From a virus (taxonomy: Duplodnaviria; Caudoviricetes), in IMG/VR virus record IMGVR_UViG_3300044580_000222, positions 1-55,458 of that record: DNA of 55,458 nucleotides, one strand, 5' to 3'. The notes beneath the pieces are model-generated. The model made no database searches and was not told the origin of the DNA. It worked only from the letters and a program-made list of their open reading frames with translations. Both the position numbers and the translations under genes were made by a program. Below are positions 22,205 through 45,710 of this stretch, in pieces; positions within the stretch are counted from its first letter, which is position 1, and each line of letters opens with the position of its first letter.

Positions 22205-22213
22205 GAACAAACC

Positions 22214-22388: not shown

Positions 22389-22396
22389 TTATCAAC

Positions 22397-23032: not shown

Positions 23033-23075
23033 ATAGTAAGTATTATATACTTATAGGTACAACTATAGTATGTAA
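23033..23075 (+). promoter_or_regulatory. conserved 43-bp cassette promoter, copy 1
   Basis: ATAGTAAGTATTATATACTTATA-GGTACA-ACTATAGT-ATGTAA. Confidence 0.85.
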
Positions 23076-23097
23076 CAAGCACATAGGGGACACAAAA

Positions 23098-23331
23098 ATG
23101 GAAAATATAAACATTCAAGAAATTGGAAAGAAAGTTGAAACGGCATTCATGGAAGTAGAAAGGTCAAAAAAACAGGGGAAAGGCGGGAATGAAATGTTTC
23201 ATTCCAGGGTTGCTCTGGGAATTCTTGAGATGGTTGAAATGATGTATGGAGTTGAACAGCGGGATCACATGGAAAAACTTGCAAAAAGCAAAGTTCAGGA
23301 AGCAAAGGTCCGGGGATATTTATACAAATAA
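23098..23331 (+). CDS. small helical hypothetical protein (cassette gene)
   Basis: AGGGGA RBS after promoter copy 1. Confidence 0.7.
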   Translation: MENINIQEIGKKVETAFMEVERSKKQGKGGNEMFHSRVALGILEMVEMMYGVEQRDHMEKLAKSKVQEAKVRGYLYK

Positions 23332-23349
23332 TTTTTTTAGGTGGAAAAA

Positions 23350-23523
23350 ATGATAAAGGCAATGGAAGAACCGCTTGAATTTCGTGGAGCATGGTTTCAA
23401 TACTGTTTTGACTATGATATCAGGAACTCAGCTTACCTGTGTATGTCCTGTGATGTAATGACCGATATCAAGACCGGGATATGCCCGCTGTGTGGAAAAC
23501 GGTCACCATGTGCAATGGAGTGA
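23350..23523 (+). CDS. small zinc-ribbon protein
   Basis: AGGTGG RBS; CMSC...CPLC. Confidence 0.6.
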   Translation: MIKAMEEPLEFRGAWFQYCFDYDIRNSAYLCMSCDVMTDIKTGICPLCGKRSPCAME

Positions 23524-23528
23524 GTCAA

Positions 23529-23978
23529 ATGACAAACTCCCTTCCTATGATGGTATATGATGAGATGAGAACCAAATACAGTATACCAAAAAATCCATCC
23601 ATCAGACAACCCGAAGACTTGTTACAAGTGAAGAAAATAGCAACACTAGCATCCAAAGAGGTTGAATACTTCTGTGTGCTGACCCTGAACGGAGCGTCCG
23701 AAGTCATCAGGTGCCACATCGTTACAAAAGGAGTTTTGAACTTCTCTGTGGTTCATCCGAGGGAAATATACCGGGCAGCCATAAAAGATAATGCAGCATC
23801 AATTATCTGTGTTCATAACCATCCATCAGGCAACCTGGAACCATCATCAGCGGATATCAAAATAACCAACCAACTAAAACAGGCCGGAGACATACTCGAA
23901 ATAAAATTGCTTGACCATGTAATTATCACAAAGTCAGGAATTGCCAGTATGCGGTCACTCGGATACGCATCCTTCTAA
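23529..23978 (+). CDS. radC: RadC-family JAB/MPN domain protein
   Basis: E.F.VL.L, VHPREI, HNHPSG...PS.AD, LLDHVII motifs. Confidence 0.92.
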   Translation: MTNSLPMMVYDEMRTKYSIPKNPSIRQPEDLLQVKKIATLASKEVEYFCVLTLNGASEVIRCHIVTKGVLNFSVVHPREIYRAAIKDNAASIICVHNHPSGNLEPSSADIKITNQLKQAGDILEIKLLDHVIITKSGIASMRSLGYASF

Positions 23979-23986
23979 TTTTTCAT

Positions 23987-24029
23987 ATAGTAAGTATTAT
24001 ATACTTATAGATACAACTATAGTGTGTAG
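23987..24029 (+). promoter_or_regulatory. conserved 43-bp cassette promoter, copy 2
   Basis: ATAGTAAGTATTATATACTTATA-GATACA-ACTATAGT-GTGTAG. Confidence 0.85.
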
Positions 24030-24051
24030 TAAACACATAGGAGAAATGAAA

Positions 24052-24243
24052 ATGGAACACATAAATTTTTCAACAATGGATGGAAAGAAAGCCGGAAACA
24101 TCGCTGTAGTATTCACTGGAGAAGGATGGAAAGCGACCTGTTATTTTGATGGTGATGCAGTCGTGAATATCGGCGGAATCATCGAAGAGTGCGAGACCTG
24201 GACACAGGCAGAAGAGTTCTTAAATGACTGGTATGATGTGTGA
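24052..24243 (+). CDS. small acidic protein (cassette gene)
   Basis: AGGAG RBS; 63 aa. Confidence 0.65.
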   Translation: MEHINFSTMDGKKAGNIAVVFTGEGWKATCYFDGDAVVNIGGIIEECETWTQAEEFLNDWYDV

Positions 24244-24246
24244 ACA

Positions 24247-24561
24247 ATGAGAGAAAAACTCCAATCAATTTTAAACCAGCACGGGGAGGGACTTGTATTC
24301 CTCGGAGCAGGGGGGCCGAAAGAGGATTGGATGAACGGGGTTCATTCCCTGTTATTAGAAGAGGGTATTGTATCAAAAACAGATGAGGAGATATGGACTT
24401 CTGATAACTCGTTCCAGGTTCAGGGAAGAACAGACCTTGTATTGACGTTCACTTATCTGGATGTTGCCAGACTCGCAATATGGCGTATCAGGTTCGAAAA
24501 TTGCATGTGGTTATCTGATTACATAGACAATACACATCTCTGGTCAGACAAGGAGGAATAA
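24247..24561 (+). CDS. acidic hypothetical protein
   Basis: 104-aa ORF; the EGLV..G.GG...W..G....L.EEGI...WLSDY pattern looks like a mobile-element hypothetical family (from memory, not searched). Confidence 0.65.
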   Translation: MREKLQSILNQHGEGLVFLGAGGPKEDWMNGVHSLLLEEGIVSKTDEEIWTSDNSFQVQGRTDLVLTFTYLDVARLAIWRIRFENCMWLSDYIDNTHLWSDKEE

Positions 24562-24732
24562 ATGACCACCAGAGACACCAGACGGAAAGAGAACATGGTC
24601 AGAGCGTTATACCTGCCCCTTGGAAAAGACCGGGTTGAAGAGTTCAGAAAGAAATGTATTCAAGAGAACCCGGAGTGGGAACAGTTCTTTCAGGAGTTTG
24701 ACCGGAGAAATCCGGGCATCTTCCAACAATAG
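24562..24732 (+). CDS. small hypothetical protein (56 aa)
   Basis: AGGAGG RBS; not in the track. Confidence 0.55.
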   Translation: MTTRDTRRKENMVRALYLPLGKDRVEEFRKKCIQENPEWEQFFQEFDRRNPGIFQQ

Positions 24733-24767
24733 GTATATGTATGCGCTCTTACATACTATATTCTGAT

Positions 24768-25169
24768 ATGAACTGTCCAGACTGTCTATCAGATAATATT
24801 AAAAAATCCGGGTTTGTCCAACTGAAGTCAGGAGCACAGCAACGGTATGAATGCCTTGAATGTGGAAGAACCTGGGTGGGAATGGGAAGGCCGAAAATAC
24901 CGGTGGTTGGTATCCCGTGCCCGGATTGCAAGGGTCAGGATATTGCACGGAAAGGATGGAGGATAACCAGGCAGGGAAAAATACAGCAGTATGTCTGCCG
25001 GTCATGTGGTCACATCTTCACCCTGAAACCACTTATCCAGAGAGCCGAATCGGCACCATGTCCGAAATGTCATTCTGACAAGACCCGGAAGGGTGGAAAG
25101 TATATCAGGAACGGGAAAGAACTTCAGCGGTACGTCTGCAATTCCTGTCATTCCTCTTGGATTGACTGA
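24768..25169 (+). CDS. triple IS1-InsA-like zinc-ribbon protein
   Basis: Three CPxC...K.G....G..QRY.CxxC repeats; no DDE or HTH domain. Confidence 0.75.
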   Translation: MNCPDCLSDNIKKSGFVQLKSGAQQRYECLECGRTWVGMGRPKIPVVGIPCPDCKGQDIARKGWRITRQGKIQQYVCRSCGHIFTLKPLIQRAESAPCPKCHSDKTRKGGKYIRNGKELQRYVCNSCHSSWID

Positions 25170-25189
25170 TTCTTTTTTTGTAAAACGGA

Positions 25190-25232
25190 ATAGTAAGTAT
25201 TATATACTTATAAAATAAACTATAGTATGTAG
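25190..25232 (+). promoter_or_regulatory. conserved 43-bp cassette promoter, copy 3
   Basis: ATAGTAAGTATTATATACTTATA-AAATAA-ACTATAGT-ATGTAG; preceded by a T7 terminator-like tract. Confidence 0.85.
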
Positions 25233-25255
25233 TAAACGCATAGGAAAGATGAAAA

Positions 25256-25531
25256 ATGAATTACAATGAGAAGAACCGGTTTGCAAACCTGCTAGTAGAG
25301 TTTGGAGAAAAGTTGAATGATTGCCCTGTATCAGAATATGGAGTTCTGGATGAGGTGATTGCAAAAATCCATAATAATTTATACCACATGAAAGATGCAG
25401 AAGAGGTTGCAATCCTGATTAAACAGATAATAGAAAACAAGGCAGAACGGGAAGACGGGTGGGCGGAACAATACGAGAAGGAATTATCTGACTACTTTGA
25501 AACCTTTGGTGAAAACCTTTGGGAATTCTAA
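25256..25531 (+). CDS. small acidic helical protein (cassette gene)
   Basis: Follows promoter copy 3; Glu-rich. Confidence 0.7.
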   Translation: MNYNEKNRFANLLVEFGEKLNDCPVSEYGVLDEVIAKIHNNLYHMKDAEEVAILIKQIIENKAEREDGWAEQYEKELSDYFETFGENLWEF

Positions 25532-25549
25532 TTTTTTTGGGCGATTATA

Positions 25550-25891
25550 ATGAAAAACGCAGTGGATATTAAAAAATTAAATGAAGAACACGAAATAGAA
25601 GAGATTCCATTCCTGTTTATAGATTTCATAGAGAACGAAATTACAGTTGACTATTATTATGAAGATGCAACACCACGAAAGGTTCAAGATGGAAATATGC
25701 TTATGATCCCATTACCAGAAGGGGTTTTGGTGAATCACATATCCCCGGTAGTCGATGAATTGATACCAATCATTGAAGATACCATTCAGCCAGGACACTT
25801 GCCTGGCAAGGGTCTGAACGAGTATGCAGATGGAAACTTTGTGGAACTGGTTAGTGATATTGAAGAAGGAACTGTGTTCCCAATATTATAA
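25550..25891 (+). CDS. highly acidic protein (possible DNA mimic)
   Basis: Very D/E-rich 113-aa ORF followed by a T-tract. Confidence 0.65.
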   Translation: MKNAVDIKKLNEEHEIEEIPFLFIDFIENEITVDYYYEDATPRKVQDGNMLMIPLPEGVLVNHISPVVDELIPIIEDTIQPGHLPGKGLNEYADGNFVELVSDIEEGTVFPIL

Positions 25892-25954
25892 TTTTCTCTT
25901 TTTTTTGTTAAACACCTTTAAATATTTTGTAAAGCATAACTGTCTTTCATTCTT

Positions 25955-26488
25955 ATGTCAGAATTGCGACTCGAATACATACCCGTCAACGAACTTGTTC
26001 CATACGATAAAAATCCCCGAAAGAATGATGCAGCCGCAGAAAAGGTTGCCGAACTCATTAAGGAATATGGATTCAAAAAACCCATTCTCGTAGATGTCAA
26101 AAATAATAAAAACGAGATTATTGCAGGCCATACCCGATTAAAAGCAGCTCTTCTTTTAGGTCTTGAAAAAGTCCCGGTTATTTTTGCTGATGATTTGTCA
26201 CCAGAACAGGTTAAGGCGTTCAGGATTGCTGATAATAAATCCGGGGAATGGGCAGAATGGGATAATGAACTTTTAATCCCAGAATTAACCGACTTACGAG
26301 AAAGTGGGTTCGACATTTCTCTTACCGGGTTTTCTGAAATGTCCTTGGATGGGTTTGATACTGGTTCCGAACCATCCGGTTTTGATGTGGACTCTTTCCT
26401 GACAGATGAGGAAAAACCAGATAAAAAGCCCAAATTGATAACCTGTCCCAGATGCGGGGAGTCGTTTGCTCAATATGAAGTTCTATGA
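25955..26488 (+). CDS. ParB/Srx-like domain protein with C-terminal CxxC
   Basis: L.PY.KNPRKN, IKEYGF..PILVD, IIAGHTRLKAA, RIADNK. Confidence 0.9.
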   Translation: MSELRLEYIPVNELVPYDKNPRKNDAAAEKVAELIKEYGFKKPILVDVKNNKNEIIAGHTRLKAALLLGLEKVPVIFADDLSPEQVKAFRIADNKSGEWAEWDNELLIPELTDLRESGFDISLTGFSEMSLDGFDTGSEPSGFDVDSFLTDEEKPDKKPKLITCPRCGESFAQYEVL

Positions 26489-27444
26489 CCAGGAACTATA
26501 TCGCCGGGTCCAGAGCAGAGGATATGATTCTTGATGGTTCAACAATTCCTGGCAGCAGTAAACATAAAATCAGATTCCCTGAAGGGGGGGGGAGAATTAC
26601 GAAACACCCTTCTAATTTAGCCGGAACGTATGGTGTGGGTGTATGTTTGGCAGGAACAACGGGCGGACAAACCATCCATTTAGCCGGAACGTGTGGTGAA
26701 ATAAGAGATCCGGATACTGCAAACCTTCTCTTTGAATTGGACTGGAACATGCTCGAATCATTCTATTACATTAAACCATGGCAGATTGATTGGATAAAGA
26801 GCAGACCACACCGGAAATTCCTATTAGATTCTGGGACATTTACGTTCATGAATTCAAAGCATAAAACCGTTTCAAACCTGGATGAATATGTTAAAAATTA
26901 TACAGATTTCATCAAAACTCATGGAATAAAACAGTTTTTTGAGATGGATGTCGATGCTGTAAGACCCTTATCCCAAGTAGAGAAATATCGTGATTACATT
27001 GAACAATCAACGAGACAGCAATCAATTCCGGTCTGGCACAAATCACGTGGAATAAAATATTTTGAAGATATGTGCAAAGACTATTCATATGTAGCAGTCG
27101 GGGGAATTGTCACCAAAGAGATTCCAAAATCGAAATTTGAAGTGTTCCACAAACTCATTCAGATAGCACATCACCACGGAGCCAGGATACACGGGCTGGG
27201 GATAGGATCTCCCTCTACAATCAAGAAGTATGCTTTTGATTCAGTTGATTCGTCATCATGGAATTCTTGTGCGTTTGGTGGGGGGCACGTGTATCAGTTT
27301 AAAGACGGGAATATTGTAAAAATCCCGTTCAATTCATCAAAAAAGTATGACCGTCATAAAGTGGTCAGACATAATTTTTCGGAATGGGTAAAATTCTCAC
27401 AGTATTTGGAGCATCAATATGTACACAGTAAAAAAACGATTTGA
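26485..27444 (+). CDS. dpdA: DpdA-like DNA 7-deazaguanine transglycosylase (TGT fold)
   Basis: LLDSGTFTF, EMD, IPVWH, YVAVGG, IHGLG, SVDSSSW motifs; adjacent to que genes. Confidence 0.8.
   Translation: MTRNYIAGSRAEDMILDGSTIPGSSKHKIRFPEGGGRITKHPSNLAGTYGVGVCLAGTTGGQTIHLAGTCGEIRDPDTANLLFELDWNMLESFYYIKPWQIDWIKSRPHRKFLLDSGTFTFMNSKHKTVSNLDEYVKNYTDFIKTHGIKQFFEMDVDAVRPLSQVEKYRDYIEQSTRQQSIPVWHKSRGIKYFEDMCKDYSYVAVGGIVTKEIPKSKFEVFHKLIQIAHHHGARIHGLGIGSPSTIKKYAFDSVDSSSWNSCAFGGGHVYQFKDGNIVKIPFNSSKKYDRHKVVRHNFSEWVKFSQYLEHQYVHSKKTI
26584..26592 (+). repeat. G9 homopolymer in the 5' region of dpdA
   Basis: GAA GGG GGG GGG AGA; the longest G/C run I noticed in the window. Confidence 0.9.
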
Positions 27445-27751
27445 AATTGCAGGTAGCCATAAACTGAATTTATCGTATCAGTCAAAATGCCAAAACATAC
27501 ACGGTCATAATTGGATTATCACCGTTATATGTAAGTCTAATTCGTTGAATGGCGACGGTATGGTAACAGATTTCTCAATAATAAAAAAAGAGATTTCGGA
27601 TAGACTAGACCATAAACATCTGAACGACATTCTCCCATTCAACCCAACGGCAGAGAATATGGCAGAATGGATTTGTCATAAGATTCCGAATGCGGTTTCT
27701 GTAATTGTGCAGGAATCAGAAGGAAACGAGGCTCGGTATGATAATTTCTGA
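27419..27751 (+). CDS. queD: 6-carboxytetrahydropterin synthase
   Basis: H.L...SKC.NIHGHNW, LDH..LN, NPTAEN, V.ES. Confidence 0.93.
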   Translation: MYTVKKRFEIAGSHKLNLSYQSKCQNIHGHNWIITVICKSNSLNGDGMVTDFSIIKKEISDRLDHKHLNDILPFNPTAENMAEWICHKIPNAVSVIVQESEGNEARYDNF

Positions 27752-28322
27752 AATCTTCCAATCACACCAGGGAGAGGGATTAAACACCGGGCAGTTCTGC
27801 ACGTTTATCAGGTTTTCAGGATGTAACCTTTCATGTTCTTTTTGTGATACCAAATATGCAAAAGTCGGGATTGAAACTAACATCGAAGAAATTCTCCCGA
27901 AACTATCATCTCATATTGTATTCACAGGAGGAGAACCATTTCTCCACGAAAAGGCGATGTATGAAATAATTAACACAAAAAATCCGGTGTATGTAGAGGT
28001 TGAAACAAACGGAACAATCATTCCAACAAATCCGGGAGTATTTGATTTAATCACCATCAGTCCGAAAACTGATATCAGATATCAGGAATGGTTAAAATAC
28101 CCGAATACAGTTTTTAAATTCCCTGCAATATACATCGACCCGGTTCTAAACATTGTAGAAAAAGAGAGAATTCCAAAGGAACGGGTGTATATCATGCCTA
28201 TAACCTCAAGGAATTTTAATAATTTGGAAATCCATCGGGACTTATCCAAACAATGCAGAGAATATGGATTTAACTTCTCTCCACGTCTTCAAGTGTTGCT
28301 CGATTGGGGGAAGGGGCTATGA
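27738..28322 (+). CDS. queE: 7-carboxy-7-deazaguanine synthase (radical SAM)
   Basis: EIF.S.QGEG, CNLSCSFCDT, TGGEP, ETNG, SPK, PRLQ. Confidence 0.93.
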   Translation: MIISEIFQSHQGEGLNTGQFCTFIRFSGCNLSCSFCDTKYAKVGIETNIEEILPKLSSHIVFTGGEPFLHEKAMYEIINTKNPVYVEVETNGTIIPTNPGVFDLITISPKTDIRYQEWLKYPNTVFKFPAIYIDPVLNIVEKERIPKERVYIMPITSRNFNNLEIHRDLSKQCREYGFNFSPRLQVLLDWGKGL

Positions 28323-28969
28323 AATCGGTTATCATCGTATCAGGAGGGATGGATAGTATAACTCTGCTCCACGATATTCATTCCCAGGGAGAAGAACTTC
28401 ATGCAATATCCTTTGATTACAACCAGAGACACCAGAAAGAAATTCGGTTTGCAAAATTAAATTGCGAGAAACTCAACATTCCGCATAAGATAATTTCACT
28501 ATCTATACTGAATGATATCGCTCCCTCTTCATTGACCCGGATAGAACCCCAAATCCCCGAAGGTCAGTATGATGGAGAGAATATGAAGCAGACCGTTGTT
28601 CCAAATCGGAATATGGTGATGCTATCGCTTGCGGCTTCTTATGCAATTGGTATTGGAGCCACAAAATTGTATTATGGTGCCCATTCAGGTGACCATACAA
28701 TATATCCCGATTGCAGACCGGAATTTGTTGAAGCAATATCAAAAACACTGTTTCTTTGTGACTGGCACCCAATCGAATTAAAAGTCCCATACCTTCACGG
28801 AAATAAAACAACCATTCTGAAAAGAGGGCTTGAATTAGGTGTTGATTATTCACAAACCTGGACATGCTATAATGGAAGAGAAATGGCATGTGGAAAGTGT
28901 GGGTCATGCGATGAGCGATTAGCAGCATTTAGAGAACTTGGAATAAAAGATCCATTGGAGTATGAATAA
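28319..28969 (+). CDS. queC: 7-cyano-7-deazaguanine synthase
   Basis: SGGMDS, VPNRN, YPDCR, TWTCY, CGKCGSC. Confidence 0.95.
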   Translation: MKSVIIVSGGMDSITLLHDIHSQGEELHAISFDYNQRHQKEIRFAKLNCEKLNIPHKIISLSILNDIAPSSLTRIEPQIPEGQYDGENMKQTVVPNRNMVMLSLAASYAIGIGATKLYYGAHSGDHTIYPDCRPEFVEAISKTLFLCDWHPIELKVPYLHGNKTTILKRGLELGVDYSQTWTCYNGREMACGKCGSCDERLAAFRELGIKDPLEYE

Positions 28970-29476
28970 ATGAAACTCGAAATTCCAGACGAACTATTCA
29001 ACGAAGAAGAGATTCAAAACACCCCCGGAAGATACCAAGGATTCCTGAACGAATGGGAAAAGAACGATGACCTGAAGTTCACAACATTCGAGAACCCTGG
29101 TTATGACCAGCTTATCATTCTCAAAGATATTGATTTTTCATCCCTTTGTTCTCATCATGTTCTTCCCTTCCACGGCAAGGCTCATGTCGGATATCTCCCA
29201 GGGGAGCGGATATGTGGGATATCTAAACTAGCAAGAGTGGTGGATAAGTTTGCATCCCGCCCACAGATTCAGGAAAAGATGACCAATGAGATAGCAGACT
29301 TCATTGAAGACAACCTTCATCCAAAGGGATGTATGGTGGTTGTAGAAGCAGGTCATGACTGTATGAGAATACGAGGAGTAAAGAAACCGGCATCTAGTAT
29401 GGTAACATCTGCAGTTCGCGGTGAATTTCTTCATACCCCATCACTGAAAGATGAGTTCATGCGACTCATTGCGTAA
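28970..29476 (+). CDS. folE: GTP cyclohydrolase I
   Basis: SLCSHH.LPF, GISKLAR, RPQIQE, H.CM..RG. Confidence 0.95.
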   Translation: MKLEIPDELFNEEEIQNTPGRYQGFLNEWEKNDDLKFTTFENPGYDQLIILKDIDFSSLCSHHVLPFHGKAHVGYLPGERICGISKLARVVDKFASRPQIQEKMTNEIADFIEDNLHPKGCMVVVEAGHDCMRIRGVKKPASSMVTSAVRGEFLHTPSLKDEFMRLIA

Positions 29477-29496
29477 AATGTCAAAACTGTCATAAG

Positions 29497-31300: not shown

Positions 31301-31374
31301 ATTTATACTTATAACTCCCTTATTTTATCCGTATAAAATACTTTCAAAATTCGTATGATATACTTACACTCGGA

Positions 31375-31417
31375 ATAGTAAGTATTATATACTTATAAAA
31401 TAAACTATAGTATGTAA
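31375..31417 (+). promoter_or_regulatory. conserved 43-bp cassette promoter, copy 4
   Basis: Identical to copy 3 including upstream CGGA, but ends ATGTAA. Confidence 0.85.
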
Positions 31418-31435
31418 CAAATGGAGAGATGAAAG

Positions 31436-31813
31436 ATGAGCCAGTATGTAGAGGATGAGAAAACCGGGAACTGGATGTTAGTTGACGACGGAGAGGGACA
31501 GGAATATGATGCAGAAAAGCATCTTGAGAACCTTGTGAACCGGGTAAACACCTGGGACCATGCAGACATCAGGGAATTGAAAGATGTCCTTGAACAGATA
31601 CCAGAAGTTCTTCGGGAAGCAGGCAAAGCGCCAAGAACCGCTGATGTGATAGACTTTTCAGACCTTCCAACAGAACCCATACCGGCAGGGTTAGAAACCT
31701 ATCCAATCTGGGCAATGGATAAGAAACACCAGTGCCTTGTTGGTGACGATGCAACCAGTATTGAGAACCTGGATGATATCAAGGCATGGTATGAGGAGAA
31801 ATCCCAGAACTAA
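31436..31813 (+). CDS. acidic hypothetical protein (cassette gene)
   Basis: GGAG RBS; D/E-rich; DLPT...WAMD...LVG motif. Confidence 0.7.
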   Translation: MSQYVEDEKTGNWMLVDDGEGQEYDAEKHLENLVNRVNTWDHADIRELKDVLEQIPEVLREAGKAPRTADVIDFSDLPTEPIPAGLETYPIWAMDKKHQCLVGDDATSIENLDDIKAWYEEKSQN

Positions 31814-31830
31814 TTTTTGAGGTGGAATAA

Positions 31831-32130
31831 ATGGATGAATTAATTATATCAAAAGAAGCATTCAAGCAAGCACAGGAATACAACAAAAAGGCAGCATACA
31901 ACCGGGAAAAGGCAGAAAAGAAATTACGAAATGGCGAGTTTCTCGGAAACGGAACCTGGATGGTGGCAGTCATTGGAAAGAAATCAATCTGGTTTGAATC
32001 CCAGGATGGGAGGACACAATTCCAAAACCAGACTGTGGCACTCCGTGACCTCGTTGATACGAATGGAACTCCCTGTGATACCTGGGAAAACCCTGAAACC
32101 CATGAAACCCATCAACTGGTGTGGGAATAA
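31831..32130 (+). CDS. hypothetical protein (cassette gene)
   Basis: GAGGTGG RBS. Confidence 0.65.
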   Translation: MDELIISKEAFKQAQEYNKKAAYNREKAEKKLRNGEFLGNGTWMVAVIGKKSIWFESQDGRTQFQNQTVALRDLVDTNGTPCDTWENPETHETHQLVWE

Positions 32131-32153
32131 ACTAATTTTTTGAGGTGGGATAA

Positions 32154-32489
32154 ATGAACAACACCTGCATATTTTGCGGGGAACCGGTCATCCTTGGCAG
32201 TTTTCAGAAATATACGGGTGGGTTCTATCGTCAAACCTATATCTGCCGGTCATGCGGAAGGCAGTATGTAGATGGTCCTGCATTCCAAGAGAAACCCAGT
32301 GACCGGAGGTTTAACCCATTGGAGAAACCACCGTGTCCGAGATGTGGAAGCGATAACACCATGTTCAACGAATGGCTAGAAACCAAAGAGCGAATAAAAC
32401 CCAGGTTCAAATGCCTGAATTGTAACAGGTCGTTTACATTGGGCGGAAAATTGAATTCACATAAGAAATATGATGAGGAAAAACAATGA
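32154..32489 (+). CDS. double IS1-InsA-like zinc-ribbon protein
   Basis: CxxC...Y.CRSCG and CPRCGS...RFKCLNC. Confidence 0.7.
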   Translation: MNNTCIFCGEPVILGSFQKYTGGFYRQTYICRSCGRQYVDGPAFQEKPSDRRFNPLEKPPCPRCGSDNTMFNEWLETKERIKPRFKCLNCNRSFTLGGKLNSHKKYDEEKQ

Positions 32490-32659
32490 TAACAATCACA
32501 ATCGAAAGCGAAGATGGTAATAGAACCGTCAAAAAATATGAATCGAACTCGTTTGAATTCGTACCGGAAAAAATAGCATCACGCCAAGGCACCGCAGCAG
32601 GCATTTACCTGCCAAAAGATGCGGTGGGAAAAGGCGTAATTGCAATTATTCTCGAATAA
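32486..32659 (+). CDS. DUF2080-like small protein (...AGIYLPKDAVGKGVIAIILE)
   Basis: 57 aa, not in the track; IYLPK..VGK.V motif; ATGA overlap. Confidence 0.65.
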   Translation: MITITIESEDGNRTVKKYESNSFEFVPEKIASRQGTAAGIYLPKDAVGKGVIAIILE

Positions 32660-35301: not shown

Positions 35302-35309
35302 GGTAATCA

Positions 35310-35453
35310 ATGCCGACAGGAAAACCAATTGACAACACTACGAAACAGACCATCCGAGAAATGTATCAGACCTGTTCCAAAAACAGGATAGCAAAAACCC
35401 TGGGAATTAACCGGAGAACGGTTATCAGAATTCTTTCTGACCGGGAAAACTAA
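35310..35453 (+). CDS. small HTH protein (47 aa, ...SKNRIAKTLGINRRTVIRIL)
   Basis: GAGGT RBS; clear HTH motif; not in the track. Confidence 0.65.
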   Translation: MPTGKPIDNTTKQTIREMYQTCSKNRIAKTLGINRRTVIRILSDREN

Positions 35454-35474
35454 TTTTACATATTTTAGTATAGA

Positions 35475-35517
35475 ATAATAAGTATTATATACTTATAGGT
35501 ATAACTATAGTATGTAG
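35475..35517 (+). promoter_or_regulatory. conserved 43-bp cassette promoter, copy 5
   Basis: ATAATAAGTATTATATACTTATA-GGTATA-ACTATAGT-ATGTAG. Confidence 0.85.
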
Positions 35518-35540
35518 TAAACACATAGGAGAAAACAAAA

Positions 35541-35795
35541 ATGAACTACAATGAAAATTCACACAGAATCATAACTGAATCAGATGAAATTCAGGTTGGA
35601 ATGAAAATTGGAACCCTAATAAACGGAAGAGTTATGTTTGCAGGAGAAGTCTGCGAAATTACCTATCGGGATGTATCCCCGGTATTTGGATACAAATACG
35701 TGGGGGGATATGTTTTCTGGAGAGATAACAAAACCAGCAAAATGTCTTTTTCGATGCATGATGGAGAACAGAGCATTGTGGAGATATTAAACTAA
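35541..35795 (+). CDS. small beta-rich hypothetical protein (cassette gene)
   Basis: AGGAG RBS after promoter copy 5. Confidence 0.65.
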   Translation: MNYNENSHRIITESDEIQVGMKIGTLINGRVMFAGEVCEITYRDVSPVFGYKYVGGYVFWRDNKTSKMSFSMHDGEQSIVEILN

Positions 35796-35812
35796 TTTTT
35801 CAGGTGGATAAA

Positions 35813-36037
35813 ATGAAGAAAAACGCACTTCACAAAATAATGGATGAACACTTTGAACAGATTGAACGGGAGCACCCGGAACAGTGTTTCAACTGTCTTC
35901 CTGAACTGGATTATGAAGATGATTTATTCGTTTATCATTGCCTTCGGGATTACGGCTGTTCCCAGGAAGAGATAGACCGGTTATGCAGACCGGAGAACCG
36001 GGAAGAGTGTGACCGGATAATGAGGGGAAAAGAATAA
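35813..36037 (+). CDS. small acidic Cys-containing protein (cassette gene)
   Basis: AGGTGG RBS; followed by a T-tract. Confidence 0.6.
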   Translation: MKKNALHKIMDEHFEQIEREHPEQCFNCLPELDYEDDLFVYHCLRDYGCSQEEIDRLCRPENREECDRIMRGKE

Positions 36038-36267
36038 CCTATCACTTTTTGTTATGTTCCCCGAATGCAGATATCTCTTTGCAGATATCATTCAGGCATT
36101 CGATTATCTCATTGTGATAATATCCATCCCACACTCCTATCTTATACTGGATGTATTCAGCGATAGGGCCCGTGTCATCCGGTATCCTGATGATGGTGTC
36201 AGGGACATCTTTTTTCATTCTACAAAAACATCTGTGATGCTCATCGTCAGGGTCTTCTGGATGAATT

Positions 36268-36582
36268 TCAACACTCCGGTATATTTACCCGATGCCGGTC
36301 TTTTAATTCCTGGGCTTTTGCTGCATTGAAACCGGAAACGGACTGCATATACCCGGTTATTCTACTAACACCGTCTACGTCATGGCACCCACAAACGGGA
36401 CACATCAACTCACCGCAATCCGGGCAATATGCTAATCCGTCAACGATATCATGATTGCAGGTTAAATTGTCCTTTTCACACATCTCCTTCAGCCCGATGT
36501 TGGATAGACATTTCGGGCAGTTTCCATCAATCAAATCAGATTCTTCGATTACAATCTTACATGAGTGGCATTTGTATTTCAT
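36268..36582 (-). CDS. stand-alone NrdD C-terminal (Zn-ribbon + glycyl-radical loop) protein
   Basis: CPVCG.HDVDGVSRITGY...FN.AK.QE..DR; extra CxxC pairs; AGGAG RBS. Confidence 0.8.
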   Translation of the reverse strand: MKYKCHSCKIVIEESDLIDGNCPKCLSNIGLKEMCEKDNLTCNHDIVDGLAYCPDCGELMCPVCGCHDVDGVSRITGYMQSVSGFNAAKAQELKDRHRVNIPEC

Positions 36583-36599
36583 TTTATTATCTCCTAAAC

Positions 36600-38352
36600 T
36601 TCCTTTATGGATAATCGACATTCGAGTTTGGATAATAATTTGTATTTCAGGTCACATTTCATAGACGAACCATGTACAATCCGATACATTTCAGAGAGTT
36701 CTTCATTTTGTATAAATATATCCAACCCATCTTCAAAATCAGTGATTTTCATTCTTCTTGCTCCCATTCATCGTGATATTCCAAAACTCTCCTCCAAACG
36801 TCCATGAATGATACGTTGTATTTTTGCGCAGCGTGCTCCATACGATGACAGACATCTATGCAAACCGCATCTAATCCGGTGCAGGTCATTTAATCCACCC
36901 CCCCATTTAATTCATTTAATTGTTGAGGAGTCAACAATCTAGATATTTCATCAATCAATTTACTAGCCATCTGGCTATAATGCGGTGAATTAACAATCCG
37001 ATATAATTCTGGCAATTCTTCATCGGGTATATAAATTTGTAGCCCATCTTCCATTACAGTTATATTCATCTAATCCACCACCACAAGGATTCGGGCCGGG
37101 CCGTTGATAAACCGGGCAGTATGAATATCAATACCAGAGCACCCATATTCAGATTCGGGTAAATTTTTCCAAACCCGCGTATATGCAGTATTATCCAAAG
37201 GTATATCTACGAAAGTGACTTCATCCCGCTTAATCAGTTCTTTAACGAGTGATTCAGTCGTGGAGACACACATACATACCGGTTCAGTCATCTCATTTAC
37301 AACCGGGCATAATTCGTGTCTGCTCTTCAGTTCTGCTATGAGTTCTTCAGTTGTAAAACCTCTGATTGAAGCCTTCCTTGTTTTCTGCGATATCCATGAC
37401 ACATCCTCATTTTTGGTCATGTTTTATCACCATGTCCAAACGGGCACCATTCCGGAGTTGGTTTTGTCATATCCAGTATAGCCCACTTCTCGACAACATA
37501 TCCAGGCTCGTTATCTTCAGCCCAATCTATACCCTCACAAACCCACACATGGTCTTTATACGCTTTATTTGGACACCCGTGTTTACATCTTGGTGTCATA
37601 ACAAACACTCCTTCTTCAGTTCATCCACTAGTTCCCGCCGGATAGGACAATACCTTGAATTCAACACGAAATTGATAAACCCGTCTATCTCATCCGGCCT
37701 TAACCGGATTTGTAGTTCAGTAGAATTATTCAGTATCCTCATGCAGCACCGATATTGAAAATTGCGGTCTTGAAACATCCACGGAACATGACCAGTTCCC
37801 TCGTTTTACCCGGATAGTAGTCAACATATCATTACCTGGAAAAAGTCTGTTTTCAGCGATCTTAGCAACTTTTGCAGTTTTATATTTCCTGGCACGTTGA
37901 ATTGAATCCGTAAAAATCTCTTTTTCCTGCAACCAGAACGAATCCTGGTTTATCATCACTTTTTATCAAACACCCATCTTTTACCAACGGGCACAATGCT
38001 TCAAACGTGCTGTATTCAAACACACATTCACCACACCCTGATTCGTGTTTGCATTTGTGATATGAACCAGTATGTTTAGTGACATGCAGTTTCTTCCCTC
38101 TGTATGGACACTCTTCCACATCAACAATAATTTTAAATTTCATTTCTGCACCCACCAATACCCTCGACAAATCCAACACACGTCACCAATCGGAACACCC
38201 CCGGTCTTATCCGGTTTCTTGTATCCCCGTGCCTGGGGCGAGTGACACCGACCGGAATCAAACGAATACCAATCTCCATTCTCCTTTTTTCGCCATACCT
38301 CATGAACCCGGTTATGGTCACAGGTATCGCAAAACCGGTTATCTTCGGGCAT
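36600..38352 (-). other. cluster of short, coupled, often Cys-rich minus-strand hypothetical genes (e.g. 37070-37420, 37417-37608, 37596-37778, 37726-37959, 38140-38352)
   Basis: Chain of overlapping ORFs with GGTG/GGAG RBSs, opposite in orientation to the head operon. Confidence 0.55.
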
Positions 38353-38455
38353 CTATTGAGTCCTTCAGCACGATAGCAACATTTTTCCCAACCCATTCTT
38401 TCGGGAGGTATATCAGACCAACGCCATTGCATTTTCCAACTGTTTTTAATTTCAT
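38339..38455 (-). CDS. DUF2080-like small protein (MKLKTVGKCNGVGLIYLPKEWVGKNVAIVL...)
   Basis: IYLPKEWVGK.V motif; first gene of the minus-strand cluster. Confidence 0.7.
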   Translation of the reverse strand: MKLKTVGKCNGVGLIYLPKEWVGKNVAIVLKDSIDARR

Positions 38456-38674
38456 TTCAAAACCCCATACAGAAAAAAATTGTACGTCCATTAAATCTCT
38501 TTCAATACGACGGCCACTTCTTTTCCTATCCATTCCTTCGGAAGATAAATTCTCCCGCTTGTGTCTCCTTTTGACACGGTTTTTTTAACTAAAAAATATC
38601 CTTGGATATTGAATTGATGTACATCCATGTTTAACATAATTATGTATTTTATATACATTTAATGTTTATCATGA

Positions 38675-38693
38675 GCAAAAGTCACTTTTATAA
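38675..38693 (+). promoter_or_regulatory. putative late promoter (GCAAAAGTCACTT + TATA)
   Basis: 13-bp motif shared with 49007-49019; TATA about 25 nt before the ATG. Confidence 0.5.
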
Positions 38694-38714
38694 CTCTCGT
38701 TAAATTAGCCGGAT

Positions 38715-39818: not shown

Positions 39819-39823
39819 GATAA

Positions 39824-40345
39824 ATGGCAACTGTAAGCAATGCAATTGTGCAGGGCGGGAACGTTCCAATCACTGACCTGTCATGCCAGGTAGAGACTGC
39901 CACCGACATGTATCCTGGTCGTCTCTGCAAGAAGGGAACCGGAGACCGCGACCTGGTTGTAGCAACCGGAGGGAGTAACCCGGCCGGATGGCTCGGATAT
40001 GAACAGGCTGCACCGTCAGAACGTCCGGCAAACATGACCACGGCATATGCCGCTGATGATGTCCCTCCGGTTCTGAAGGGTGGAGGATTCATTATTCTGG
40101 CAACCCTGTCCACATCACAGACCGTCGCAAAGGATGATGCTCTTGTAGCCGACGCAGCAGGTCGGGTTAAGAAGGCAAGTTCCCTCGGAATTGTATCGGG
40201 TTCGACCAATGTGACATCCGCCGCAGCAAACGGAACCACAACCATCAGCGGTTCGGCTGGAACTGAACGTATTGTCGGGTATGCAGAGGAGTCCGTCACA
40301 ACCACCACCGCAACCGCAACTATCAGAGTAAGGAGTGTCATCTAA
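39824..40345 (+). CDS. head decoration/cement protein
   Basis: Ala/Gly/Thr-rich; between scaffold and MCP. Confidence 0.65.
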   Translation: MATVSNAIVQGGNVPITDLSCQVETATDMYPGRLCKKGTGDRDLVVATGGSNPAGWLGYEQAAPSERPANMTTAYAADDVPPVLKGGGFIILATLSTSQTVAKDDALVADAAGRVKKASSLGIVSGSTNVTSAAANGTTTISGSAGTERIVGYAEESVTTTTATATIRVRSVI

Positions 40346-40346
40346 A

Positions 40347-41252: not shown

Positions 41253-41256
41253 GCAT

Positions 41257-41469
41257 ATGAAAGTGGAAGTGCAGTTTGGTCAGATATACCAGGGTGAACA
41301 GACCTGGCAGAAGGGGGATATCATGGAGGTATCAGAGGACCTTGCATACAAGCTTGGGTCCCAGGTAAAACCCTATACCGAACCCATTCCTGAACCTGTC
41401 AAGGAAGAACCGGTTCAGACTCACGGGAAACCGCAGTCTGGAAAGAAACCGGCAGAAAAGGAGGAATAA
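41257..41469 (+). CDS. small head-associated protein
   Basis: KGDI.EV motif plus low-complexity tail; follows MCP. Confidence 0.55.
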   Translation: MKVEVQFGQIYQGEQTWQKGDIMEVSEDLAYKLGSQVKPYTEPIPEPVKEEPVQTHGKPQSGKKPAEKEE

Positions 41470-41473
41470 ATAA

Positions 41474-41911
41474 ATGGCGGTCACAGCAGATACGATTCGT
41501 CTGATATCCCAGGGTGAATACACCGTTGGGACTTCTGGAACTATCACAGAAGCAGACTTTTCCACGTTTTTGCTGTGGGCCACCGGACAGTTTGACCTGG
41601 ATAACCCAGGGAATTCAACCCCTTCCATCTCTGACATGGCCGTTGGACTTCTTGTCTGTCATTACATTGACCGGGCAAAGAATGACCAGCATATCACGTC
41701 AGAAGATGCAGGAGACGGTTCAACCAGGTTTGATACATCCGGGTCAAACTGGATGAAATCATACCAGGAGATTATCTCGTCCCTGAAAACGAAAGCCGCA
41801 GAACTCCGGGCTAATCCCGGTCTGACTGTAAAACAACCGTCAACAGGAGTGACCCGCAAAGATGCGGGAAGTTCAGGTATCGGTATGGCAGCATCTTCAT
41901 TATCTGGTTAA
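41474..41911 (+). CDS. head-tail adaptor
   Basis: Position; A..LLVCHY motif. Confidence 0.6.
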   Translation: MAVTADTIRLISQGEYTVGTSGTITEADFSTFLLWATGQFDLDNPGNSTPSISDMAVGLLVCHYIDRAKNDQHITSEDAGDGSTRFDTSGSNWMKSYQEIISSLKTKAAELRANPGLTVKQPSTGVTRKDAGSSGIGMAASSLSG

Positions 41912-41915
41912 AAAT

Positions 41916-42263
41916 ATGGCTCGAAGGGCATCATTCTGTCATCTCTGCGATATCTCCAACCCAGGGGCTATCACTGGATACATCAATGGAAGACCGCAGT
42001 ATGGAGCAGTCATTACGACAAACGTTCCATGCCGGTTCTATTCCCTGAAAAGCCCGGTTCAGGAGACAGCATCCGGGGCTCACATCATCTCTCAATTACG
42101 GCTCCGGGTATACCTGGATACCAGTATAAGCGAAGATTCGACAATTGTTGGAAAGTCTGGAAGTTTCACCGGAACCTATTCGGTTGATTCCCTGCCTGAA
42201 ATTGTATATTCAAACAAGCATCCCGCCTGGATAGAATGCTCGTTAAAGGCGGTTGAATCATGA
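41916..42263 (+). CDS. head-closure (stopper) protein
   Basis: Position; beta-rich; NVPCRF motif. Confidence 0.6.
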   Translation: MARRASFCHLCDISNPGAITGYINGRPQYGAVITTNVPCRFYSLKSPVQETASGAHIISQLRLRVYLDTSISEDSTIVGKSGSFTGTYSVDSLPEIVYSNKHPAWIECSLKAVES

Positions 42264-42628
42264 TTACGGGATTGGATTCACTTCTTGTGAAACTAGAGAA
42301 CCTGAAACAGTTGCCCGTAAAAATGCAGCCTGCCGTTGACCAATGCCTTATTCAGATGGAAGGGTCAGCAAAACAGTATGCATCCGGTCCCAGGCCCGAA
42401 CGGATTGATAAGGTAACCGGATACCTGGTTGCCCATATCGAAGCACAACCATCTGAAGTTCATGGAACCATCATATCAGGGTCTGTTGATTGTGGGGCGG
42501 AATACGGGATACATCATGAGTATGGAACGTCCCGTCTCCCTGCCCGTCCGTTCATGGGTCCGGCCATGATAGAGAACGAGGAAGGGTGTGTGGAAAAACT
42601 GAATGAAGTTGTCAGGGGGCTGGTATGA
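42260..42628 (+). CDS. HK97 gp10-like tail completion protein
   Basis: ITGLD.L, TG.L, EYGT..LPARPFMGPA. Confidence 0.85.
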   Translation: MITGLDSLLVKLENLKQLPVKMQPAVDQCLIQMEGSAKQYASGPRPERIDKVTGYLVAHIEAQPSEVHGTIISGSVDCGAEYGIHHEYGTSRLPARPFMGPAMIENEEGCVEKLNEVVRGLV

Positions 42629-43029
42629 GTTCAGACCTCATCCGCGAAATCCTTCTGAATAACTCATCAGTATTCTCCCGTATCGGGTTCACGTGGGGAA
42701 CAAATAACAAGGAAATCCGGTGTTTCAGGTCATCTGCTCCAATGGGAACCGCAGCCCCGTATATCGTTTATCATGATGTCGGCGGGGTTGATGGAAACCC
42801 TGTTGGAAAAAGCCTGAAATTCCGGGTATTGTCTTGGGCTTCTGATGAATTATCCAGTAAAGCCCTGGCAAACGATGTCGAGACCGCGTTAAAGAACTTC
42901 TCTGGCAAGTCCGGGGATACCTGGATTGATGGGTTTGTTCTTGATTTCTTCAGTGATTCACACGAGGAGAAGGAGACCGGTCTCTGGTATAGTATCAGAA
43001 CATTCACGATGATTTATGGAGTTAATTAA
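42625..43029 (+). CDS. tail terminator (DUF3168-like)
   Basis: AP.G.A.PYIVY motif; position. Confidence 0.7.
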   Translation: MSSDLIREILLNNSSVFSRIGFTWGTNNKEIRCFRSSAPMGTAAPYIVYHDVGGVDGNPVGKSLKFRVLSWASDELSSKALANDVETALKNFSGKSGDTWIDGFVLDFFSDSHEEKETGLWYSIRTFTMIYGVN

Positions 43030-43031
43030 AA

Positions 43032-43976
43032 ATGGCACTTATCCATAACGAACAGCAGGAATCAGGTTCCATTTATTTCGGGAACTGTCTTCTGTTTGCA
43101 GGAAGATATACCGGGGCTGCATCAGATTTCTCATCCACCAATCTGATGAACCTCGGTTTAAAGCGTTCTGTTGAATACGAACCGGTAACGGAGACTATTC
43201 AACCGGAATTTGACGATGGAGAGTTCAATGATATCATTGATTCCGAAACCGTCCGGTTATCTGTTGAACTGACTGAAGTGGTCGCTGAAAAGATGGCTTT
43301 ACTATCAGGTGGAACTCAGTTTGTCCGGTATGTTCTCGGAACCCCGGTTGTCATGTCAACCGCGTATGACACAATTACGATGTCATCCACAAAGCCGGTT
43401 AGACTGGCAAACCGAAGTTATACCACATCAGCACCAGCTCTTGTTACCAGTATCACGGTGAAAGAGGATACTGACACCACCCCAGAAACATATGTGGCAG
43501 ACACGGATTATGTCATCTCCGGTCCAGACCTGATGGGATATACCACTATTACCCGGAAGAGCACGTCCACCAGCATTGTAGAGGGACAGAAGGTCCGGGT
43601 TGCATATACCTATACCCCTGCAAAGATTATTTCTCTCCGGCGTGGTGGTGCAACCGAAATTCAGCCGATTGTCCTTCGGCTTATCCATGTGAAGAGACTG
43701 GATAGCAGTAATCTCATCTATGGTCTGAAGGTTGATATCGTCAAGGCATATTTCAACAAAATGAGTGCCCTGTCTCTCACTTCTGACAAGGATAAGAAGT
43801 CGTCTTGGGGTATTCCATACGAATTCCTCGGAAAAGTGGATTCGTCCCGTCTGCTTGAGAACGGCCAGCTCGACCTGATTGATACCCTGAAGGGTGTTAC
43901 CCTGACCGACCTGAACATGCAGGGAATGGTTGACCTCGATCTTGCTATCCTGAAGAATGCAGCAGTAACCGTATAA
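43032..43976 (+). CDS. major tail (tube) protein
   Basis: Between terminator and chaperone; beta-rich with an Ig-like insert (Y..DTDY). Confidence 0.75.
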   Translation: MALIHNEQQESGSIYFGNCLLFAGRYTGAASDFSSTNLMNLGLKRSVEYEPVTETIQPEFDDGEFNDIIDSETVRLSVELTEVVAEKMALLSGGTQFVRYVLGTPVVMSTAYDTITMSSTKPVRLANRSYTTSAPALVTSITVKEDTDTTPETYVADTDYVISGPDLMGYTTITRKSTSTSIVEGQKVRVAYTYTPAKIISLRRGGATEIQPIVLRLIHVKRLDSSNLIYGLKVDIVKAYFNKMSALSLTSDKDKKSSWGIPYEFLGKVDSSRLLENGQLDLIDTLKGVTLTDLNMQGMVDLDLAILKNAAVTV

Positions 43977-43978
43977 TC

Positions 43979-44488
43979 ATGGATGCTTTAGAAAATTACG
44001 GGGCTATCCGGGGTGACTCCCGGCAGTTCCGTATCAATGACGAAATTTTTACTATTCGGAGAATCCCTGCTCGTATCCAGATGGATTTCCTGGCATGGCG
44101 GGTTGAAACTACCAGACCGGAGAAACCGAAGAATACTGAACAGGTGGATGAAAATATCGAATACCGGAACGATACCCGGAACGAATTTGAATTTCTGCTC
44201 GACTGTTGTGTGAATACCCTCAATTCCGCACGGACACAGGAACAGAAATCGCGGTTTGAAGTCTCCGTAGACTGGCTTTTGGACAACGTATCAGCCGATA
44301 TGTTCGAGAAACTTATCTATGAGGTGATGGCCCCTTTCTTAAACCGCCTCGAAGAAATAAAAGCAGAGGCCCAGGCGAAACTGGTGAAGATGCAGAAGGC
44401 GGCACTGGAACCGACGATGAGGGAGATGATTCAGGAGGAGATTCAGAAACACCTGAAGAAACCCTCCAATTCCTCTGCAAAGTCATAA
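43979..44488 (+). CDS. tail assembly chaperone (gpG-like)
   Basis: Follows the tail tube gene; contains a slippery site. Confidence 0.75.
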   Translation: MDALENYGAIRGDSRQFRINDEIFTIRRIPARIQMDFLAWRVETTRPEKPKNTEQVDENIEYRNDTRNEFEFLLDCCVNTLNSARTQEQKSRFEVSVDWLLDNVSADMFEKLIYEVMAPFLNRLEEIKAEAQAKLVKMQKAALEPTMREMIQEEIQKHLKKPSNSSAKS

Positions 44489-44718
44489 GGGAATTATGCT
44501 ACTTCAACTCATGGACCCCTGAATACTGCCTGGATTTAGACGTTCATGACCTGATAGAATACTGGTCTGTCTCAACTCATCAGTCGATTAAATATTCCGT
44601 CCTGTGTATGGGCGTGAATATTGATGAGAACAAGGAAGAGAAGAAACAGAAGAAGCGTGGCAAGTTCCCTGATAAAATGGCTTTGGCCCGGTATGGCATA
44701 GATTACGACTCAATTTAA
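44332..44718 (+). CDS. -1 frameshift extension of the tail chaperone (gpGT-like)
   Basis: C CCT TTC heptamer at 44332-44338 in the correct phase; -1 frame open 44323-44718 encoding ...ELCYFNSWTPEYCLDLDVHDL... Confidence 0.75.
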   Translation, partial: PFLKPPRRNKSRGPGETGEDAEGGTGTDDEGDDSGGDSETPEETLQFLCKVIRELCYFNSWTPEYCLDLDVHDLIEYWSVSTHQSIKYSVLCMGVNIDENKEEKKQKKRGKFPDKMALARYGIDYDSI

Positions 44719-44740
44719 CCTTCTTTTTTCAGAATTTAAA

Positions 44741-44783
44741 ATAATAAGTATTATATACTTATAGGTATAACTATAGTGTGTAA
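44741..44783 (+). promoter_or_regulatory. conserved 43-bp cassette promoter, copy 6
   Basis: ATAATAAGTATTATATACTTATA-GGTATA-ACTATAGT-GTGTAA; preceded by a T-tract. Confidence 0.85.
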
Positions 44784-44807
44784 CAACACAAAGGAGTGAA
44801 AAGAAAC

Positions 44808-45068
44808 GTGGCAAAACAATTAAGATACACCGGAAATGAAAACCCTGACGGAACCCTTGAATTTACATTCGTTCGTGGGAAAACACCTGCGAAATTTGAA
44901 TATAATGGTTACAATTGTGAAAAACAATGTCTGAACTGCGATGGAACCGGAACTGTATATGAACAGGATGTTTCAGGAATGGATAGGAATACAACCTGTC
45001 CATACTGTAATGGCACCGGTCATGTGGATGAGTCCACATATGATAAGATGTGGTCAGGGGAATGGTGA
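44808..45068 (+). CDS. DnaJ-type zinc-finger small protein (cassette gene)
   Basis: CLNCDGTG...CPYCNGTG. Confidence 0.7.
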   Translation: MAKQLRYTGNENPDGTLEFTFVRGKTPAKFEYNGYNCEKQCLNCDGTGTVYEQDVSGMDRNTTCPYCNGTGHVDESTYDKMWSGEW

Positions 45069-45073
45069 TACAA

Positions 45074-45214
45074 ATGACCGAACTGTGTCCAGATGATGTT
45101 CCCGGTTGCTGTGAATGTCCTTTACAGGGAACCCAGAACTGCCCATATTTGACTGAAGAAGAAACCGATTACTGGAACGATGGTGGAGTATACTGGAAAC
45201 AGGTATACGGATAA
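45074..45214 (+). CDS. tiny acidic Cys-rich protein (46 aa)
   Basis: GGTGA RBS; MTELCPDDVPGCCECP...; not in the track. Confidence 0.55.
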   Translation: MTELCPDDVPGCCECPLQGTQNCPYLTEEETDYWNDGGVYWKQVYG

Positions 45215-45237
45215 CAATTTTTTAGGTGATTGAAATA

Positions 45238-45420
45238 ATGAACCTGGATGATGAATTCATTACATACGTGGAAGATAATATCTGTCCACGGTGCAGCCTT
45301 GACCCTGACGAAACTTGTCCATACCGGAACTATCAGGAATGCCCGGATGTGATATCTTACCTGGAAGAGACTGAACGAGAGATGGAACGGCAGGATGAAG
45401 TGATGGGAGAGTGGTTCTGA
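45238..45420 (+). CDS. small acidic Cys-rich protein
   Basis: AGGTGA RBS; CPRC...CP...CP. Confidence 0.6.
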   Translation: MNLDDEFITYVEDNICPRCSLDPDETCPYRNYQECPDVISYLEETEREMERQDEVMGEWF

Positions 45421-45634: not shown

Positions 45635-45710
45635 TAGATATCTTTCTCATCTTTTTTGTTTTACAGTGATAAACACAATTATATAGTATTCGGTATAACT
45701 ATACTAGATA

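Follow-up and report, generated by a model that had tools for sequence, protein, structure and literature searches.

Six repeat-headed gene cassettes in a temperate tailed virus

The window analysed here is the whole of IMG/VR record IMGVR_UViG_3300044580_000222, a single record of 55,458 bases classed with direct terminal repeats, and represents a complete temperate tailed virus. Its gene content includes a tyrosine integrase, an MCM helicase, terminase, MuF, major capsid, tail and tape-measure proteins, and a DpdA-like/QueCDE/FolE cluster. The labels portal, protease and chaperone are assigned by gene position, with no family match behind any of them. The subject of this report is a 45-bp repeat that occurs six times on the plus strand, each time heading a cassette of small accessory genes. 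Judged from its sequence, the geometry of the repeat is of the archaeal promoter type, and comparison with related viruses points to it as the site at which the genes behind it are exchanged.

The six copies occupy positions 23033–23077 (copy 1, slot A1), 23987–24031 (copy 2, slot A2, which carries ArdC cassettes in relatives), 25190–25234 (copy 3, slot A3), 31375–31419 (copy 4, slot B, between terL and portal), 35475–35519 (copy 5, slot C, 3' of MuF and of a small HTH gene at 35310–35453, missing from slot C of relatives) and 44741–44785 (copy 6, slot D, between tail chaperone and tape measure). All contain the 17-mer TAAGTATTATATACTTA, which is found exactly six times on the plus strand (23037, 23991, 25194, 31379, 35479 and 44745); shuffled sequence gave a mean of 0.08 matches even when three mismatches were allowed. 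A 45-bp matrix built from 34 variants of the element scored the six copies at 66.6–75.7 bits, cleanly separated from the next sites of the window at 23.3, 8.0 and 7.0 bits. The exact count, the shuffles and the matrix scan confirm the six copies of the original prediction, made from the letters of the window. The best of the weaker sites, a degenerate look-alike at 45669–45713 (+) before a 50-aa (amino acid) ORF and a 325-aa gene, was excluded as a member because its likeness is lost in relatives, where the equivalent in L087, L034 and L047 scores 12 bits.

The cassettes hold 18 cargo genes of 46–149 aa, distributed 3, 4, 2, 4, 2 and 3, in agreement with the earlier estimate of about 18 small genes in cassettes of two to four; all lie on the plus strand. 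Cassette 1 (23098–23978) consists of C1a (77 aa, 23098–23331), the Cys-rich C1b (57 aa, 23350–23523), neither with a family above cut-off, and a RadC/JAB gene (149 aa, 23529–23978; PF04002, 137.9 bits, cut-off 22.1). Cassette 2 (24052–25169) comprises C2a (63 aa), C2b (104 aa), C2c (56 aa) and C2d (142 aa), the last of which has three IS1-type zinc ribbons (NF050000, 74.5 bits, three stretches) and is the constant last gene of slot A2. Cassette 3 (25256–25891) is formed by C3a (91 aa) and C3b (113 aa), both acidic and without a family match. Cassette 4 (31436–32659) contains the acidic C4a (125 aa), C4b (99 aa), C4c (111 aa), a double zinc ribbon whose Lar matches are all below cut-off, and C4d (57 aa, 32486–32659), a DUF2080 protein (NF033496, 24.9 bits, cut-off 22) that is the usual last gene of slot B. 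Cassette 5 (35541–36037) is composed of C5a (84 aa) and C5b (74 aa), whose homologues occupy slot A1 and slot D in relatives. Cassette 6 (44808–45420) includes C6a (86 aa; DnaJ-type zinc finger, below cut-off), C6b (46 aa) and C6c (60 aa), the last also present in slot A2 of relatives.

Promoter geometry, distribution and likely host

Copy 1 displays a purine-rich run that looks like a BRE (the element recognised by TFB), a TATA box at 23043, the variable 6-bp spacer and ACTATAGT. With the archaeal spacing of TATA box, proximal promoter element and pyrimidine-purine start outlined in PMC5316973, its start site is predicted at about 23072–23074. The distance from the TATA box to the start codon of the first gene is 51–57 nt in all six copies, a run resembling a ribosome-binding site (RBS) precedes each first gene, and T-rich runs lie upstream of most copies. 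A natural variant of the element retains a TATA-type box, TTAAATAG. Transcription is thus predicted, with high probability, to start from the repeat.

Among 185,579 species genomes (GTDB), the exact element pattern gave two matches, both on virus-like 1.5-kb contigs in a bacterial bin that carry cargo genes. At exact match, therefore, the element is not a common host promoter, an objection that the original prediction had itself raised. The pattern was further found in 27 loci of viral contigs, 20 of them from related viruses; the other seven (L014, L015, L019 and L022–L025) were dropped, as the second half of the motif is absent and no protein matches the window. Metagenomes yielded 46 stretches with the pattern. 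The retained set is made up of 66 loci with 114 element copies. The virus group carrying the element stems from digester and sludge metagenomes. The best matches of the window MCM are archaeal viruses, and among 120 listed homologues of the dCTP deaminase those with organism names are all Methanomicrobiales except for one generic label. A Methanomicrobiales host is therefore likely at the order level, which supports the proposed methanogen virus.

Exchange of cargo at the repeat among relatives

The cargo pool behind the element in these loci comprises 49 families with a median length of 78 aa, and cargo differs between relatives. Where the 115-nt upstream flanks of two copies are at least 80% identical, the first gene is unrelated in 77 of 117 pairs (57 distinct copies), and some pairs with 100% identical upstream flanks still run into an unrelated gene. 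The converse is also seen: the flanks are unrelated ahead of K35 (99% identical) and of K19 (95% identical). In four DNA runs (24 of 266 rows listed), contigs depart from the window sequence at 23077–23078 (three other runs), 23032 (one) and 35522 (one), which are element edges. A script flagged 18 families as present in more than one slot, and 13 of the 49 were left after removing five that depend on unassigned flanks. Five of these 13 change slot only through collapse of the upstream cassette; homologues of C5a, C5b and C6c, by contrast, relocate between slots that lie far apart. L026/L027 is laid out as if the stretch between copies 1 and 2 had been deleted, a tandem element copy in L084 is joined at a linker, and L051 and L088 carry broken copies.

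This linker is a second repeated junction, consisting of a stop TAA, a T run, an RBS (GGTG) and a start, at 23329–23352 (+) and again at 25529, 31811, 35793 and 45212, with a looser version at 32128. The full linker follows 5 of the 18 cargo genes as against 1 of 80 other genes; for T runs the corresponding counts are 9 of 18 and 2 of 80. Slot occupancy varies as well: slot B is filled in 9/9 loci spanning the terL/portal gap, slot C is empty in 7/7 relatives' loci reaching the site, and an extra slot beside a DUF2637-HTH gene, filled in L040 and L048, is unfilled in the window. One relative has an IS605/TnpB-like gene near slot E (L048:1056–1913).

From these comparisons, the element appears as the breakpoint at which cargo is exchanged in related viruses, a second role that the original prediction missed. 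The invariant cargo with virion or housekeeping functions that it had named as a counter-argument was not encountered, as the cargo is variable and non-virion across relatives. The exchange is quite probably driven by homology or microhomology. Alternatively, the element might be an integron- or att-like site used by the tyrosine integrase, with promoter activity secondary; the virus does encode such an integrase, and an imperfect inverted repeat (5–9 of 9 pairs) surrounds the variable 6-bp spacer. We consider this very unlikely, since the junctions vary (leader, linker, about 87 nt upstream in L084, within the broken copies of L051 and L088), spacers differ inside one genome, and the element keeps a constant distance from the start codon. 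Still less probable are decaying remnants of insertion-sequence-like elements, suggested by the IS1-type zinc ribbons that end slot A2 and the transposase-associated DUF2080 that ends slot B: no cargo gene has a transposase catalytic domain, and the open reading frames are intact, equipped with RBS and conserved across relatives.

Placement of the slots

Three copies stand in tandem (23.0–25.9 kb) ahead of the ParB-N/DpdA/Que cluster and three among virion genes, so that the earlier placement of the cassettes in the virion region holds for the latter three and fails for the tandem set before the DNA-modification cluster. The accompanying claim that cassettes interrupt normally contiguous gene pairs also needs correction. 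At terL/portal, none of the relatives covered has the pair adjacent, 9/9 loci across the gap carrying the motif, and the MuF/protease gap is mostly taken up by a 2.6-kb minus-strand, motif-free operon, versions of which occur in relatives. This operon (36042–38658, −) contains about 13 small ORFs, of which one encodes a zinc protein resembling the NrdD C-terminus and another a second DUF2080 protein, and is variable among relatives.

A separate TATA-like run lies 25–40 nt upstream of each of four genes: ParB-N, portal, protease and tape measure. Because of these runs and the T-rich runs before most copies, the slots are predicted to be transcription-unit borders, where insertion would spare the virion operons. 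A run, AAAAGTCACTT, is common to 38677–38693 and 49009–49024, before the protease and tape-measure genes, and is a candidate late promoter for leaderless transcripts.

The scattering of the copies had been explained as insurance, ensuring early anti-defence expression under any permutation of the packaged DNA. The copies do span 22 kb, and their distribution does not depart significantly from random (p = 0.06 with six sites, 0.24 with four). This explanation is nonetheless highly improbable, because the cargo is unique to each slot and scattering yields no redundancy, 61% of the circle is copy-free with the copies confined to 39%, slot C is empty in the 7/7 relatives, and the predicted transcription-unit borders account for the sites.

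Counter-defence content of the cargo pool

The clearest anti-defence component is an ArdC homologue (cargo K3, 269 aa) located behind the element in slot A2 of relatives. It matches PF08401 (94.7 bits) and PF18818 (125.7 bits), both above cut-off, as well as the solved ArdC structure (PDB 6i89, E 1e-50) and an anti-restriction entry of PHROG. The protein combines ArdC-N with a zincin MPTase domain, and full-length copies contain the HELTH (HExxH) motif. Eleven distinct sequences stand behind five different first genes, with a very short ORF between. ArdC of plasmid R388 is described as countering HsdRMS and as needing expression in the recipient (PMC7213743). The RadC/JAB gene of the window belongs to a family for which a nuclease role has been proposed and which is listed as one of the polyvalent-protein domains (PMC5512222); the function of RadC is disputed. 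The arsenal of anti-defence genes originally proposed is thus partly supported by ArdC in the relatives' pool and RadC in the window, and fails to extend to a recognised anti-CRISPR or anti-restriction family among the 18 window genes.

Slots A1–A3 adjoin a swappable DNA-modification module (25955–29476, +) composed of ParB-N, a DpdA-like transglycosylase, QueD, QueE, QueC and FolE, predicted to carry out 7-deazaguanine DNA modification. The module after slot A3 is, depending on the relative, DpdA/Que, a C5 methyltransferase, a TAGT glycosyltransferase or PAPS-reductase/DUF3440 (window; L007, L020, L027, L053, L070). We infer that these slots and the module form a counter-restriction neighbourhood. 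In L070, an N6/N4 methyltransferase is found 3' of terL.

The remaining cargo provided few leads. C2b (24247–24561) is an unnamed, widespread domain that measures about 85 aa. It has 375 representatives (E ≤ 0.001), and several proteins containing it are 600–1400 aa long without Pfam domains. A link between C2b and polyvalent proteins is unsupported, because none of 30 longer homologues scanned (of 150 listed) carries an ArdC, MPTase or LPD domain; one has DUF7417, the sole Pfam family above cut-off. Neither C2b nor C4a gave a usable ESM Atlas match. Structure prediction and fold search of the cargo, as advised in the original prediction, returned no match for C4a or DUF2080. A DNA-binding fold for DUF2080 is likewise without support, since its model (predicted template modelling score 0.35) has no fold match, its profile has no PDB match, and a weak MazE match occurs in 1 of 11 members (E 0.026). 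In the C4a homologues P0218, P0222 and P0225, an in-frame fusion adds either a DUF2080 domain or cargo K18's C-terminal domain, and the C4a–DUF2080 fusion would resemble an effector–regulator fusion.

For most of the cargo, anti-defence roles are plausible at slightly below an even chance. A competing possibility is that the cassettes are morons, accessory units active in the lysogen or throughout infection that modulate the host or exclude competitors, with ArdC an occasional passenger. The virus is temperate, as its integrase indicates, most cargo is without a known family, and the chaperone/tape-measure gap that houses cassette 6 also contains a superinfection-exclusion gene of the Ltp type. 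No element stands at the head of this Ltp gene, however, and PADLOC matches 0 of the 49 cargo proteins. Moreover, ArdC requires expression upon entry (PMC7213743), and the near-identical promoter at every slot suggests joint control. We therefore regard morons as unlikely. The Ltp-type lipoprotein itself (47999–48403, annotated superinfection exclusion) is retained in relatives ahead of the tape-measure gene.

Palindromes and candidate regulators

The 7-3-7 palindrome over the TATA box is perfect in 31 of 38 variants, and the other seven break one pair. In a variant found via the portal protein, the 7-3-7 palindrome is broken and the 9-2-9 repeat around the spacer is perfect. Either of the two repeats may serve as the operator. 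Candidate regulators are an Arc-like repressor with a C-terminal zinc ribbon and the genes that regularly close slots A2 and B, which stand in an Aca-like position. The Arc-like gene (9755–10099, −; phrog_6506, E 9.7e-6) and its divergent control region span 9755–10225. The control region contains four TATAAC hexamers, at 10113, 10123, 10197 and 10208, which are kept in L090. As a link between the element and this repressor the hexamer is weak: it is exact in 17 of 34 variants, falls in the most variable part of the element, and also occurs before the portal, protease and tape-measure genes. That one shared repressor governs all copies is slightly favoured, and early timing of cassette expression is rather more probable.

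Proposed function of the repeat

The reading that we favour, as reasonably probable overall, is that of a promoter repeat heading exchangeable cassettes whose pool is likely enriched in counter-defence genes. The 45-bp repeat would act as a strong promoter of the archaeal type, probably subject to repression and probably active shortly after infection or induction, at the head of variable small accessory-gene cassettes in a temperate virus of likely Methanomicrobiales. Cargo changes at the repeat among relatives, likely through recombination between near-identical repeat copies. Because six gene groups share the element and relatives carry other genes behind it, it is likely both an early on-switch and a gene swap point. 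A far-reaching version, which we consider doubtful, is a two-tier, recombinase-free shuffling platform of promoter repeat and linker that moves genes, domains and cassettes across at least seven slots, with most of the 49 families being undescribed inhibitors of methanogen immunity that the Arc-like repressor switches on with the lysis decision.

Several observations weigh against the favoured reading. ArdC is absent from the window itself, none of its 18 cargo genes is above cut-off for anti-CRISPR or anti-restriction models, and among the 49 cargo representatives ArdC is the sole recognised anti-defence family, with no anti-CRISPR model match. The C4a model, predicted at pLDDT (predicted local distance difference test) 84, has no fold match at E ≤ 0.001 in PDB or BFVD. 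The cargo had been called mostly acidic or zinc-binding; acidity is borne out only modestly, as 13 of 18 cargo proteins have an isoelectric point below 5.5, compared with 20 of the 43 remaining window proteins no longer than 150 aa (rank test p = 0.013, Fisher p = 0.09). Variability extends beyond the element, because the motif-free minus-strand operon and the DNA-modification module vary too. The 66 loci are redundant, many coming from the same contigs, the copy pairs are non-independent events, and a 45-bp repeat is a place where metagenome assembly can produce false joins. Among the assembled contigs, no circular intermediate was seen. The 7-3-7 palindrome shows zero compensatory changes, in a set of variants mostly found with a pattern demanding the palindrome. 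The RNA runs, being assembled contigs of diverged strains, carry no start-site or timing information.

Relation to described systems

In Sulfolobales viruses, anti-defence genes have been defined by a regulatory sequence (Bhoobalan-Chitty et al. 2024, PMC11065993). As in that account, one conserved TATA/BRE sequence, here in six copies with the scores and start distances given above, precedes small unrelated genes dispersed in the genome, and the 18 genes and 49 families found here are likewise small and without virion or housekeeping role. In the Sulfolobales account, some viruses have inverted repeats in the sequence, and the dispersed cases are circular bicaudavirus genomes, whereas the present virus is temperate and of the head-tail type, its host signal points to a methanogen, and the operons comprise 2–6 genes. 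Further, the word 'recombination' has 0 occurrences in the main text of PMC11065993, while the element described here would be an exchange point. No cargo matched AcrID1, AcrIIIB1 or Aca8.

The second parallel is PeSL of T4-type phages, conserved promoter-terminator repeats at which ORFans are described as gained, lost and replaced with core genes undisturbed (Arbiol et al. 2010, PMC2839356; Comeau et al. 2014, PMC4122927). Gain, loss and replacement of genes at the repeat between close relatives is likewise found here. The element is not filed as PeSL, because PeSL is reported as a sigma-70 promoter with a stem-loop, and here an archaeal TATA promoter is accompanied by oligo-T runs. As additional differences from those accounts, the virus is temperate with 55 kb, the slots lie among virion genes, and there is an added inter-gene linker; excised mini-circles are a feature of PeSL, and the present element is known from assembled contigs. 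By analogy, the element may unite shuffling of the PeSL kind with the anti-defence promoters of crenarchaeal viruses. The co-regulating promoter and the exchange repeat are each already in print separately and are combined here, which suggests that a promoter co-regulating such genes also enables their turnover. The element itself was not described in the titles and abstract openings covered by a literature search.

The 269-aa cargo of relatives, with both ArdC domains and HELTH, and the stand-alone RadC/JAB of the window resemble R388 ArdC and polyvalent-protein domains as presented in PMC7213743 and PMC5512222. They differ in being predicted from sequence in a double-stranded DNA archaeal virus, ArdC-N being described as rare in phage-type proteins. 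As the characterised archaeal anti-defence proteins cited in PMC11065993 are few and all from Sulfolobales viruses, the element offers a sequence handle on 49 candidate families, anchored by ArdC.

Other features of the window

The window major capsid protein has no match among INPHARED phages, and neither ARAGORN nor Rfam reported a tRNA or Rfam match in the window; this includes a tRNA T-arm-like stretch ending in CCA at 22364–22384. In one RNA run, positions 21070–22977 are covered by a deep contig from a related strain. The terminal repeat (1–66 and 55393–55458) is built of 21-bp tandem units.

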